The notes beneath the pieces are model-generated. The model worked only from the letters and a program-made list of their open reading frames with translations. It ran no database searches and had not been told where the DNA came from. A DNA stretch of 64,000 nucleotides from Escherichia coli. GTDB taxonomy: Bacteria > Pseudomonadota > Gammaproteobacteria > Enterobacterales > Enterobacteriaceae. The position numbers and the translations under genes were made by a program. Positions within the stretch are counted from its first letter, which is position 1. Every line of letters starts with the position of its first letter. The stretch is from the NCBI RefSeq assembly GCF_051903065.1, contig NZ_CP178438.1, one strand, 5' to 3'. This document shows, piece after piece, positions 13,473-35,165 of the stretch.

Positions 13473-13483
13473 ACCGTAGGCCT

Positions 13484-13593
13484 GATAAGACGCGCAAGCG
13501 TCGCATCAGGCAACCAGTGCCGGATGCGGCGTGAACGCCTTATCCGGCCTACAAGTCATTACCCGTAGGCCTGATAAGCGCAGCGCATCAGGC
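13484..13593. repeat. REP/BIME palindromic units in sdhB-sucA spacer
   Basis: Repeated CCGTAGGCCTGATAAGRCGC / GCGTCGCATCAGGC-type imperfect palindromes. Confidence 0.7.
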
Positions 13594-17825: not shown

Positions 17826-18000
17826 ACTGTAGACCGGATAAGACATTATCGCCTTCTCCGGCAATTGAAGCCTGATGCGACGCTTAACGCGTCTTATCAG
17901 GCCTACGGGAAGCACCGATGTAGGTCGGATAAGGCGCTCGCGCCGCATCCGACAAGCGATGCCAGATGCGACGCTTACACGTCTTATCAGGCCTACGGGT
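17826..18000. repeat. REP/BIME cluster in sucB-sucC spacer
   Basis: Several inverted copies of the GCCTGATGCGACGCTT / AAGCGTCGCATCAGGC-type REP unit. Confidence 0.7.
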
Positions 18001-20216: not shown

Positions 20217-20352
20217 ATGTCTTAAACGGTTAACCACGGTCGAAATCTGACTGCAGGCTTGACTGCATGACCACAACCACTGTGGATTGCCGCGACCGGT
20301 GATGCTGCCAACTTACTGATTTAGTGTATGATGGTGTTTTTGAGGTGCTCCA

Positions 20353-31532: not shown

Positions 31533-32078
<546 letters not shown>

Positions 32079-32087
32079 GAGAATTGC

Positions 32088-32879
32088 ATGAGCAGTAACT
32101 TCAGACATCAACTATTGAGTCTGTCGTTACTGGTTGGTATAGCGGCCCCCTGGGCCGCTTTTGCTCAGGCACCAATCAGTAGTGTCGGCTCAGGCTCGGT
32201 CGAAGACCGCGTCACTCAACTTGAGCGTATTTCTAATGCTCACAGCCAGCTTTTAACCCAACTCCAGCAACAACTCTCTGATAATCAATCCGATATTGAT
32301 TCCCTGCGTGGTCAGATTCAGGAAAATCAGTATCAACTGAATCAGGTCGTGGAGCGGCAAAAGCAGATCCTGTTGCAGATCGACAGCCTCAGCAGCGGTG
32401 GTGCAGCGGCGCAATCAACCAGCGGTGATCAAAGCGGTGCGGCGGCATCAACGACGCCGACAGCTGATGCTGGTACTGCGAATGCTGGCGCGCCGGTGAA
32501 AAGCGGTGATGCAAACACGGATTACAATGCAGCTATTGCGCTGGTGCAGGATAAATCCCGCCAGGATGACGCAATGGTGGCATTTCAGAATTTCATCAAA
32601 AATTACCCTGATTCAACTTACCTGCCAAACGCCAATTATTGGCTGGGTCAGTTAAACTACAACAAGGGTAAAAAAGATGATGCGGCGTACTATTTTGCTT
32701 CGGTAGTGAAAAACTATCCGAAGTCACCAAAGGCTGCAGATGCGATGTTTAAAGTCGGCGTCATCATGCAGGACAAAGGTGACACCGCAAAAGCGAAAGC
32801 CGTATACCAGCAGGTTATCAGTAAATACCCTGGTACTGATGGCGCTAAACAGGCGCAAAAACGTCTGAACGCGATGTAA
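32088..32879 (+). CDS. cpoB: Cell-division coordinator CpoB (YbgF), TPR protein
   Basis: 263-aa ORF with signal peptide, coiled-coil and TPR regions. Confidence 0.95.
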   Translation: MSSNFRHQLLSLSLLVGIAAPWAAFAQAPISSVGSGSVEDRVTQLERISNAHSQLLTQLQQQLSDNQSDIDSLRGQIQENQYQLNQVVERQKQILLQIDSLSSGGAAAQSTSGDQSGAAASTTPTADAGTANAGAPVKSGDANTDYNAAIALVQDKSRQDDAMVAFQNFIKNYPDSTYLPNANYWLGQLNYNKGKKDDAAYYFASVVKNYPKSPKAADAMFKVGVIMQDKGDTAKAKAVYQQVISKYPGTDGAKQAQKRLNAM

Positions 32880-33042
32880 TGCATAACACACGACCAGAAG
32901 TCGCATTATTTCTGGTCGTGTCGTGCGAATCATAAGCAGTTGAGTGATCTACATCGAAATTTTTGTTGCGCTCAAGTCTGAAATCAGTAATATATGCCGC
33001 CGTTGCCACGGGATATCAAACAAACCGAAAGCAACGAAAAGT

Positions 33043-33118
33043 GGGTCGTTAGCTCAGTTGGTAGAGCAGTTGACTTTTAATCAATTGGTCGCAGGTTCGA
33101 ATCCTGCACGACCCACCA
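33043..33118 (+). tRNA. lysT: tRNA-Lys (anticodon UUU)
   Basis: 76 nt, GGGTCGTTAGCTCAGTTGGTAGAGC...CUUUUAAUC anticodon loop...CACCA. Confidence 0.95.
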
Positions 33119-33153
33119 CTAACCTAGTTAGTTGTAGTATCCAGCGTAGTATC

Positions 33154-33229
33154 GGGTGATTAGCTCAGCTGGGAGAGCACCTCCCTTACAAGGAGGGGGT
33201 CGGCGGTTCGATCCCGTCATCACCCACCA
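33154..33229 (+). tRNA. valT: tRNA-Val (anticodon UAC)
   Basis: 76 nt, GGGTGATTAGCTCAGCTGGGAGAGC...CUUACAAGG anticodon loop...CACCA. Confidence 0.95.
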
Positions 33230-33231
33230 CC

Positions 33232-33307
33232 GGGTCGTTAGCTCAGTTGGTAGAGCAGTTGACTTTTAATCAATTGGTCGCAGGTTCGAATCCTGCACGA
33301 CCCACCA
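33232..33307 (+). tRNA. lysW: tRNA-Lys (UUU)
   Basis: Identical copy of the tRNA-Lys sequence. Confidence 0.95.
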
Positions 33308-33358
33308 CTAATTACGGTGGGTTCGGTGGAAGTAGTTTGTAGTATCCAGCGCAGTATC

Positions 33359-33434
33359 GGGTGATTAGCTCAGCTGGGAGAGCACCTCCCTTACAAGGAG
33401 GGGGTCGGCGGTTCGATCCCGTCATCACCCACCA
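33359..33434 (+). tRNA. valZ: tRNA-Val (UAC)
   Basis: Identical copy of the tRNA-Val sequence. Confidence 0.95.
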
Positions 33435-33437
33435 CTC

Positions 33438-33513
33438 GGGTCGTTAGCTCAGTTGGTAGAGCAGTTGACTTTTAATCAATTGGTCGCAGGTTCGAATCCT
33501 GCACGACCCACCA
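33438..33513 (+). tRNA. lysY: tRNA-Lys (UUU)
   Basis: Identical copy of the tRNA-Lys sequence. Confidence 0.95.
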
Positions 33514-33593
33514 ATTTTAACATCAAACTCAGATGTTAAGCGTGAAGGATAACGTTGCGCCAGCAACGGCCCGTAGGGCGAGCGAAGCGAGTC

Positions 33594-33611
33594 ATCCTGC
33601 ACGACCCACCA
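33594..33611 (+). other. Orphan 18-nt copy of the tRNA-Lys 3' end (ATCCTGCACGACCCACCA) in the lysY-lysZ spacer
   Basis: Exact match to the last 18 nt of the tRNA-Lys genes with no upstream tRNA body. Confidence 0.6.
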
Positions 33612-33659
33612 ATCTTAAAGATTGGCCCCGAGTAAAAATCTTTCAGGTAACACCCGTAT

Positions 33660-33735
33660 GGGTCGTTAGCTCAGTTGGTAGAGCAGTTGACTTTTAATCA
33701 ATTGGTCGCAGGTTCGAATCCTGCACGACCCACCA
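33660..33735 (+). tRNA. lysZ: tRNA-Lys (UUU)
   Basis: Identical copy of the tRNA-Lys sequence. Confidence 0.95.
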
Positions 33736-33768
33736 TCCTGAATGATTAAAGCAGCATAATCCCGCAAG

Positions 33769-33844
33769 GGGTCGTTAGCTCAGTTGGTAGAGCAGTTGAC
33801 TTTTAATCAATTGGTCGCAGGTTCGAATCCTGCACGACCCACCA
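33769..33844 (+). tRNA. lysQ: tRNA-Lys (UUU)
   Basis: Identical copy of the tRNA-Lys sequence. Confidence 0.95.
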
Positions 33845-33850
33845 ATGTAA

Positions 33851-33876
33851 AAAAGCGCCCTAAAGGCGCTTTTTTG
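33851..33876 (+). terminator. Rho-independent terminator of the lysT tRNA operon
   Basis: Hairpin AGCGCC-CTAA-AGGCGCT followed by TTTTT. Confidence 0.7.
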
Positions 33877-34030
33877 CTATTCAGGCATCTCTCAATTTCA
33901 ATTCTTGACCCTGATGACATACTCCGCGCTTGCTGCGTAAACAACTTTACGTCGGAGGAATAAGACGCAAAGTGTGGCATTCGGCATCTCATACGTAATT
34001 CGAGTGACTTTTCCCCACCATTCGACTATC

Positions 34031-34048
34031 TTGTTTAGCATATAAAAC
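34031..34048. promoter_or_regulatory. Candidate NadR operator (NAD box) upstream of nadA
   Basis: TGTTTA-GCATAT-AAAACA palindrome about 75 bp upstream of the nadA start, close to the TGTTTA-N6-TAAACA consensus. Confidence 0.5.
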
Positions 34049-34121
34049 AAATTACACCGATAACAGCGAATATCACGCTAATGTCGGTTTTAACGTTAAG
34101 CCTGTAAAACGAGATGGTAAG

Positions 34122-35165
34122 ATGAGCGTGATGTTTGATCCAGACACGGCGATTTATCCTTTCCCCCCGAAGCCGACGCCGTTAAGCATTGATGAAAAAG
34201 CGTATTACCGCGAGAAGATAAAACGTCTGCTAAAAGAACGTAATGCGGTGATGGTTGCCCACTACTATACCGATCCCGAAATTCAACAACTGGCAGAAGA
34301 AACCGGTGGCTGTATTTCTGATTCTTTGGAAATGGCGCGCTTCGGTGCAAAGCATCCCGCTTCTACGTTGTTAGTCGCTGGGGTGAGATTTATGGGAGAA
34401 ACCGCCAAAATTCTCAGTCCGGAAAAAACAATTCTGATGCCGACACTTCAGGCTGAATGTTCACTGGATCTCGGCTGCCCTGTTGAAGAATTTAACGCAT
34501 TTTGCGATGCCCATCCCGATCATACTGTCGTCGTCTACGCCAACACTTCTGCTGCGGTAAAAGCGCGGGCAGATTGGGTGGTAACTTCAAGCATTGCCGT
34601 CGAACTTATTGATCATCTGGATAGTTTGGGTGAAAAAATCATCTGGGCACCCGACAAACATCTGGGGCGTTACGTGCAAAAACAGACGGGCGCAGACATT
34701 TTATGCTGGCAGGGTGCCTGCATTGTGCATGATGAATTTAAGACTCAGGCGTTAACCCGCTTGCAAGAAGAATACCCGGATGCTGCCATACTGGTGCATC
34801 CAGAATCACCACAAGCTATTGTCGATATGGCGGATGCGGTCGGTTCCACCAGTCAACTGATCGCTGCTGCAAAAACATTGCCACATCAGCGGCTTATCGT
34901 GGCAACCGATCGGGGCATTTTCTACAAAATGCAGCAGGCGGTGCCAGATAAAGAGTTACTGGAAGCACCAACCGCGGGTGAGGGCGCAACCTGCCGCAGC
35001 TGCGCGCATTGTCCGTGGATGGCCATGAATGGCCTTCAGGCTATCGCTGAGGCATTAGAACAGGAAGGAAGTAATCACGAGGTTCATGTTGATGAGAGGC
35101 TGCGAGAGAGGGCGCTGGTGCCGCTCAATCGTATGCTGGATTTTGCGGCTACACTACGTGGATAA
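34122..35165 (+). CDS. nadA: Quinolinate synthase
   Basis: 347-aa ORF, recognised NadA sequence. Confidence 0.97.

Follow-up and report, generated by a model that had tools for sequence, protein, structure and literature searches.

The lysT operon of Escherichia coli is a textbook locus in which the majority of the tRNA-Lys genes of the cell reside, and how it is transcribed and processed is already established. In K-12 the lysT promoter gives rise to a single transcript of more than 1100 nt that carries all seven tRNAs (Agrawal, Mohanty and Kushner, PMC4176162). RNase P first takes off the Rho-independent terminator and then cuts each mature 5' end, proceeding in 3'-to-5' order along the precursor. 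RNase II and PNPase shorten the long Lys trailers, and the 3' ends are finished by RNase T (Lys) and RNase PH (Val) (PMC4176162). The valU operon (valU-valX-valY-lysV) shares the tRNA-Val(UAC) and tRNA-Lys(UUU) sequences and the short Val-Lys spacers of the array described below, but has the gene order V-V-V-K and lies elsewhere on the chromosome. Its lysV terminator is identical to that of lysQ (PMC4176162). The valU operon is likewise RtT-bearing: in E. coli locus L053 a long RtT-like element, whose last part copies the Lys 3' end, comes after lysV. The tyrT RtT RNA (RF00391) is the rttR of Bosl and Kersten (1991), as cited in PMC3318445. Release of a stable RNA from an operon transcript is reported only for the tyrT product (cited in PMC3318445 and PMC7542023).

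We analysed a stretch of 64,000 nucleotides of E. coli DNA, referred to here as the window. ARAGORN finds exactly seven tRNA genes in it, all of them on the + strand and in an array at 33043-33844. They are the orthologues of lysT (tRNA-Lys(UUU), 33043-33118), valT (tRNA-Val(UAC), 33154-33229), lysW (Lys(UUU), 33232-33307), valZ (Val(UAC), 33359-33434), lysY (Lys(UUU), 33438-33513), lysZ (Lys(UUU), 33660-33735) and lysQ (Lys(UUU), 33769-33844), each placed by ARAGORN, string comparison, Rfam and alignment with K-12. Under the tRNA model RF00005, whose gathering score is 29, each Lys copy reaches 79.2 bits and each Val copy 65.9. The order K-V-K-V-K-K-K with five Lys(UUU) and two Val(UAC) genes, as given in the original prediction, was thus reproduced by both methods at the coordinates given there, and chance is no explanation for it. 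String comparison agrees with the prediction in two further respects: the Lys genes are five copies of one 76-nt sequence and the Val genes two copies of another, and the intergenic spacers measure, in order, 35, 2, 51, 3, 146 and 33 bp. CCA is encoded in all seven genes. None of the seven copies looks like a pseudogene by ARAGORN, Rfam or string comparison, and the sole tRNA fragment, which the original prediction had passed over, is a second copy of the last 18 nt of tRNA-Lys, situated at 33594-33611 within the 146-bp spacer. Open reading frames over the array reach at most 71 aa on either strand and were treated as mechanical because they are situated over tRNA genes. Three sub-threshold Rfam matches, to YrlA (44 bits vs 69), Plastid-ycf2 (28.5 vs 65.7) and AgrB (23.7 vs 40), were set aside as tRNA-like or terminator-like noise.

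An array of this kind presents a superficial picture of direct repeats and spacers, and this picture is the sole support for reading it as CRISPR-like or as some other non-tRNA repeat array. However, each repeat is a full 76-nt tRNA whose cloverleaf scores more than twice the gathering threshold, and the repeats are of two types. Spacer length varies between 2 and 146 bp, and the annotation puts cpoB and nadA beside the array where a CRISPR array would usually have cas genes. We regard the chance of such a reading as practically nil. The statement that the repeats are tRNA genes and not a CRISPR array holds on all these counts (ARAGORN and RF00005, repeat type, spacers, neighbours), and the repeat array requires no new explanation.

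The locus occupies the chromosomal position of the lysT operon. Upstream lies cpoB (ybgF), a + strand CDS at 32088-32879 that was recognised as an ORF and by the cpoB annotation in the 100%-identical record NZ_CP083585.1; downstream lies nadA, also on the + strand (34122-35165; ORF, and nadA annotation in NZ_CP083585.1). E. coli ECNB21-M121 is 100% identical to the window over 3.8 kb (1.7-kb and 3.8-kb queries), and its annotation reads pal, cpoB, five tRNA-Lys, two tRNA-Val, nadA and pnuC. The locus query was matched in 5425 of 5426 complete E. coli genomes, and only 436 of the 5426 match 80% or more of the window locus in one piece.

When aligned with K-12 MG1655, the locus is collinear and nearly the same throughout, save for four precise indels. 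Between the cpoB stop codon and lysT the two sequences differ only by one A in the A run of the leader, and all the tRNA genes and the lysQ terminator have the K-12 sequence. The seven genes, their order and strand, the tRNA sequences, the promoter region, the terminator and the cpoB/nadA flanks are shared, which upholds the identification as lysT made from gene order and anticodons at the outset. In K-12, however, the spacers measure 135, 2, 149, 3, 146 and 132 bp; K-12 has five RtT-like elements where the window has one, the last of the five standing with a second terminator copy after lysQ, where the window has a single terminator. We hold it to be nearly certain that the array is the E. 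coli lysT operon and that the account of its transcription, processing, purifying selection and element loss given here is the right one. The lysT operon in this strain is already known biology, ordinary except for an RtT-like element of strain-variable presence.

Several features around the operon were observed in passing. The Rfam CpoB/ybgF thermometer is matched at the pal-cpoB junction (31979-32117, 142 bits vs a gathering score of 51). Two matches to naRNA4 (nucleoid-associated RNA, CssrE), both above the gathering score, lie elsewhere in the window, at 13479-13549 on the - strand (88.4 bits) and at 17923-17993 on the + strand (64.9 bits). The first ~125 bp past the terminator (33880-34004) fall into deeply divergent E. 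coli haplotypes: K-12 is identical to the window at 94 of 125 positions, and a third type with a 29-bp deletion at 77-78 of 125. The following 105 bp, up to the nadA start, are identical at 101-105 of 105 positions. A palindrome-like sequence, TGTTTAGCATATAAAACA, lies upstream of nadA at 34032-34049 and may be similar to a NadR operator.

The putative lysT promoter, read by eye and identical to K-12, is situated on the + strand at 32957-33001, upstream of the first gene. The candidate comprises an A/T-rich stretch, a -35 hexamer TTGCGC (32966-32971), a 16-nt spacer, a -10 hexamer TAATAT (32988-32993) and the G+C-rich discriminator GCCGCC. These would be the lysT promoter hexamers and would have the hallmarks of a stable-RNA promoter, although a consensus promoter scan called nothing in 32600-34300; the scan missed the site because its -35 matches at only three of six positions. 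At the other end of the array, a Rho-independent operon terminator on the + strand at 33847-33877 is identical to the K-12 lysQ terminator. It folds into a 13-bp stem (a GCGCC core plus A6/U6 pairs) that carries a loop of 5 nt. The fold has a dG of -19.1 kcal/mol and z = -6.15, a stability equalled by 0 of 200 shuffled sequences. The intrinsic terminator that had been noticed at the array end is thus a strong one. A simple terminator scan missed it on the + strand, since the T run is taken into the stem by the A6/U6 pairs. A further strong hairpin (dG -22 kcal/mol, z -6.3) lies directly after the cpoB stop, at 32886-32923, and no U tract follows it. Placed between cpoB and the lysT promoter, it may serve to stabilise a transcript or to terminate one.

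Since promoter region, genes and terminator are the same as in K-12, the K-12 pathway would apply here as well, although processing has been studied in K-12 only, whose spacers are longer. A sigma-70 promoter of the stable-RNA type, ~45 nt upstream of the first gene, would produce one precursor of ~0.88 kb ending at 33847-33877. RNase P would remove the terminator and then make the tRNA 5' cuts, beginning with the gene nearest the 3' end and moving upstream. RNase II/PNPase would trim the trailers, which are 2 to 146 nt long, and RNase T would finish the Lys ends and RNase PH the Val ends. Of the six genes that encode the only tRNA-Lys species, five belong to this operon, as do two of the five tRNA-Val(UAC) genes.

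An earlier database view divided the genes among several separate transcription units. EcoCyc listed four transcripts, as stated by PMC4176162, and the 146-bp spacer is long enough for a promoter. Against separate units stand the full-length species of more than 1100 nt that the same study detected in RNase P mutants, using probes from the leader through the lysZ-lysQ spacer (PMC4176162), and also the spacers of 2, 3, 33 and 35 bp, which are too short for promoters; the consensus scan, moreover, found no internal site. Several units in place of one operon are thus improbable, and we infer by analogy with K-12 that a single polycistronic transcript is processed by RNase P from 3' to 5' in this strain.

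The one part of the array that calls for closer description is the 146-bp spacer. It consists of an RtT-like structured 3'-trailer element on the + strand (33514-33611; Rfam, fold, string comparison), made up of 80 nt plus the 18-nt tRNA-Lys 3'-end duplicate, and of a site-specific 48-nt spacer before the fourth Lys gene (33612-33659, + strand), which directly follows lysY in strains that have no element. RF00391 matches 33445-33611 with 54.4 bits against a gathering score of 45, a match that takes part of the preceding tRNA-Lys for the 5' positions of the model. The 80-nt part folds stably (dG -32.7, z -3.55), and the element is closed at 33594-33611 by an exact copy of the tRNA-Lys 3' end, ATCCTGCACGACCCACCA. 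It thus follows a tRNA gene and closes with a copy of that gene's 3' end, as RtT elements do. Among 59 short elements of the Lys type we obtained a consensus structure of 21 predicted pairs, five of which show compensatory double changes; the 5' part of the element is base-paired there with its pseudo-tRNA end.

The tyrT RtT RNA and the window element are both 3'-trailer sequences of tRNA genes and share a conserved core of the form AACGTTGC-loop-GCAACGGCCCGNAGGGCGAG...GAGTCATCC; in both the end copies the 3' end of the resident tRNA and the copy number varies between strains. They differ in that the tyrT repeats measure 178 nt, whereas the window element is a short form of 98 nt that is without ~80 nt at the 5' side, and in that the 3' copy is a tRNA-Tyr end in tyrT and a tRNA-Lys end here. 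Alignment with the O157:H7 tyrT repeats likewise displays a common core; the final 14-18 nt correspond to whichever tRNA is resident, Tyr or Lys. On this sequence comparison, the window element belongs to the known RtT family as a short member of the Lys type.

The tyrT-tyrV locus was found to be RtT-variable as well. The tRNA-Tyr genes of SK1144 lie 33 bp apart with no RtT annotated, and in O157:H7 PV15-279 one RtT stands between the genes and two more follow the second gene (regions L135 1501-1703 and L136 1207-1941).

Integration into tRNA genes classically leaves inserted DNA flanked by a duplicated tRNA 3' end. The element and its 18-nt duplicate could be read in this manner as an attL/attR-like scar left by an integrative element at the tRNA-Lys 3' end, and both the duplicated end around an insert and the precise presence or absence of the element fit. 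Yet the insert is only ~80 nt long, an integrase remnant is absent, and the sequence matches a curated RNA family. Furthermore, the same covarying core is found in the 59 elements, which come from many genera, and in Tyr-type elements that end as tRNA-Tyr, and the element is repeated behind as many as five neighbouring Lys genes and, in tandem, up to nine times. An integration scar is for these reasons very improbable, and we continue to treat the sequence as an RtT-family trailer.

We examined how this trailer varies by parsing the locus regions of 14 E. coli genomes, because array length is not readable from joined BLAST places, in which the pieces are split by repeats. Every tRNA copy in the 14 genomes has the window's sequence. 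The occupancy of the five sites, in contrast to this, differs almost genome by genome. After Lys genes 1 to 5 the elements are distributed as 0,0,1,0,0 in the window and in ECNB21-M121, as 1,1,1,1,1 in K-12 MG1655 (where Rfam finds five RtT matches, one behind each Lys gene), as 0,0,0,0,0 in MS20655 and XDL, and as 1,0,1,1,0 in Res13-EB12-05; KH_005 has two tandem copies at site 4. The four indels between K-12 and the window, of 100, 98, 99 and ~156 bp, are each bracketed by ATCCTGCACGACCCACCA; in the ~156-bp indel the bracketing repeat is longer and the terminator is included. Gene number varies too, with six or seven genes per array and four or five Lys copies among them. O157:H7, O121, E423 and OkiPb01676 have only four Lys genes, with junctions of the kind that unequal exchange between Lys copies would leave. 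The unequal spacer lengths seen in the window are therefore borne out and have a cause, the presence or absence of RtT-like elements. The comparison of spacers between strains that the original prediction had proposed resolves, over these 14 genomes, into precise element indels and arrays of six as against seven genes.

The elements in the 14 genomes carry site-specific sequences, one per site. An empty site is for this reason best read as a precise loss between the tRNA 3' end and its duplicate, in preference to five independent insertions at the filled sites. The site-3 element is also present in other Escherichia and Kluyvera genomes, which was used in the same argument. On parsimony, then, the direction of the indels would be loss and not gain. 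An RtT-like element of ~98 nt would be able to follow each Lys gene, and this strain would have retained only the copy after the third; the other copies were most likely lost via recombination or slippage between the tRNA 3' end and the downstream duplicate.

Across the 5426 E. coli genomes, occupancy is at most 66% at site 1, ~40% at site 2, at most 75% at site 3 and at most 37% at site 4. The value for site 2 comes from 40 evenly spaced rows, 17 of which were single-piece matches; whole-spacer queries overcount occupancy, as seen at this site, because pieces from neighbouring sites get joined, so that the figures serve as bounds only. A limited literature search found no paper on strain-to-strain polymorphism of elements in the lysT operon, and nothing on tRNA copy-number variation that concerned this locus in particular; the polymorphism may already have been described.

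The identity of the copies had been taken at the outset to suggest ongoing gene conversion. Conversion is no more than plausible, though recombination between the repeats is evident. Identity in itself is no proof of conversion. In the Enterobacterales loci that we fetched, the tRNA-Lys sequence of the window is found in 191 of 253 tRNA-Lys genes, in many genera, so that purifying selection alone suffices to account for identical copies. The 18-nt duplicate in the spacers also gains point differences between strains, whereas the same 18 nt within the genes never do so (14 E. coli genomes), which points to selection on the genes and not to blanket conversion.

Arrays with more than one allele show both sides of the matter. 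There are 17 loci with more than one Lys sequence as called by ARAGORN. A U4:A69 and a compensatory G4:C69 allele are mixed in one array in Citrobacter, Kluyvera, Salmonella arizonae and a gut Enterobacteriaceae genome (loci L016, L060, L091 and L108), so homogenisation is incomplete. At the same time, the position of the G4:C69 allele in the array varies by taxon, and together with the changes in copy number this shows that copies exchange; it suggests that alleles move between array positions. Judged from the arrays of six as against seven genes and from the precise element losses between strains, recombination between repeats is clearly active.

It would be possible, then, that conversion between paralogues (concerted evolution) is what chiefly maintains copy identity. 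The junctions of the six-gene arrays, which fit Lys-by-Lys unequal exchange, speak for it, as do the strain with a tandemly doubled element, the two-base G4:C69 allele at different positions across taxa, and valZ, which with 22 nt upstream is a 99%-identical duplicate of the valT unit (repeat family D2). Given the Lys sequence common to so many genes, the arrays that hold two alleles and the diverging spacer duplicates, we consider this rather doubtful. Copy identity would stem mainly from strong purifying selection on the tRNA sequence, to which exchange between copies may add, and it should not be read as proof of gene conversion.

RtT-like trailers of the Lys type are found well beyond E. 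coli. An exact-pattern scan found the junction of the element with the Lys end at 120 loci or more across Enterobacterales. The genera among the matches listed are Photorhabdus, Pectobacterium, Dickeya, Erwinia, Enterobacter, Citrobacter, Klebsiella, Salmonella (S. arizonae), Edwardsiella, Providencia and others, and in these listed matches the junction occurs in lysT-type as well as in valU-type (Val-Val-Val-Lys) arrays. Also among the matches listed, Photorhabdus caribbeanensis and P. asymbiotica have tRNA-Lys genes followed by Lys-type RtT-like units in tandem, as many as nine of them, repeating every ~175 bp (regions L015 5578-7344 and L065 8827-10255). A separate 46-nt match to the RtT-like core, with 97.8% identity, lies at 20289-20334 of NZ_CP098226.1, a 50-kb E. 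coli record that, from this size, is presumably a plasmid.

RtT-like trailers might be functional or self-propagating modules across the Enterobacterales, conserved in structure and copying the 3' end of the tRNA they follow, whose strain-specific occupancy has consequences. They could tune the processing or yield of individual tRNA copies or give rise to small CCA-ended RNAs, or a dedicated copy mechanism directed at the tRNA T-arm and 3' end could let them multiply and shrink in number; we regard this as unlikely. The length differences of lysT spacers between strains come from precise gains or losses of RtT-like elements, which makes the operon a hypervariable and easily typed marker, and the occupancy of its sites is a natural experiment on whether the trailer affects tRNA maturation.
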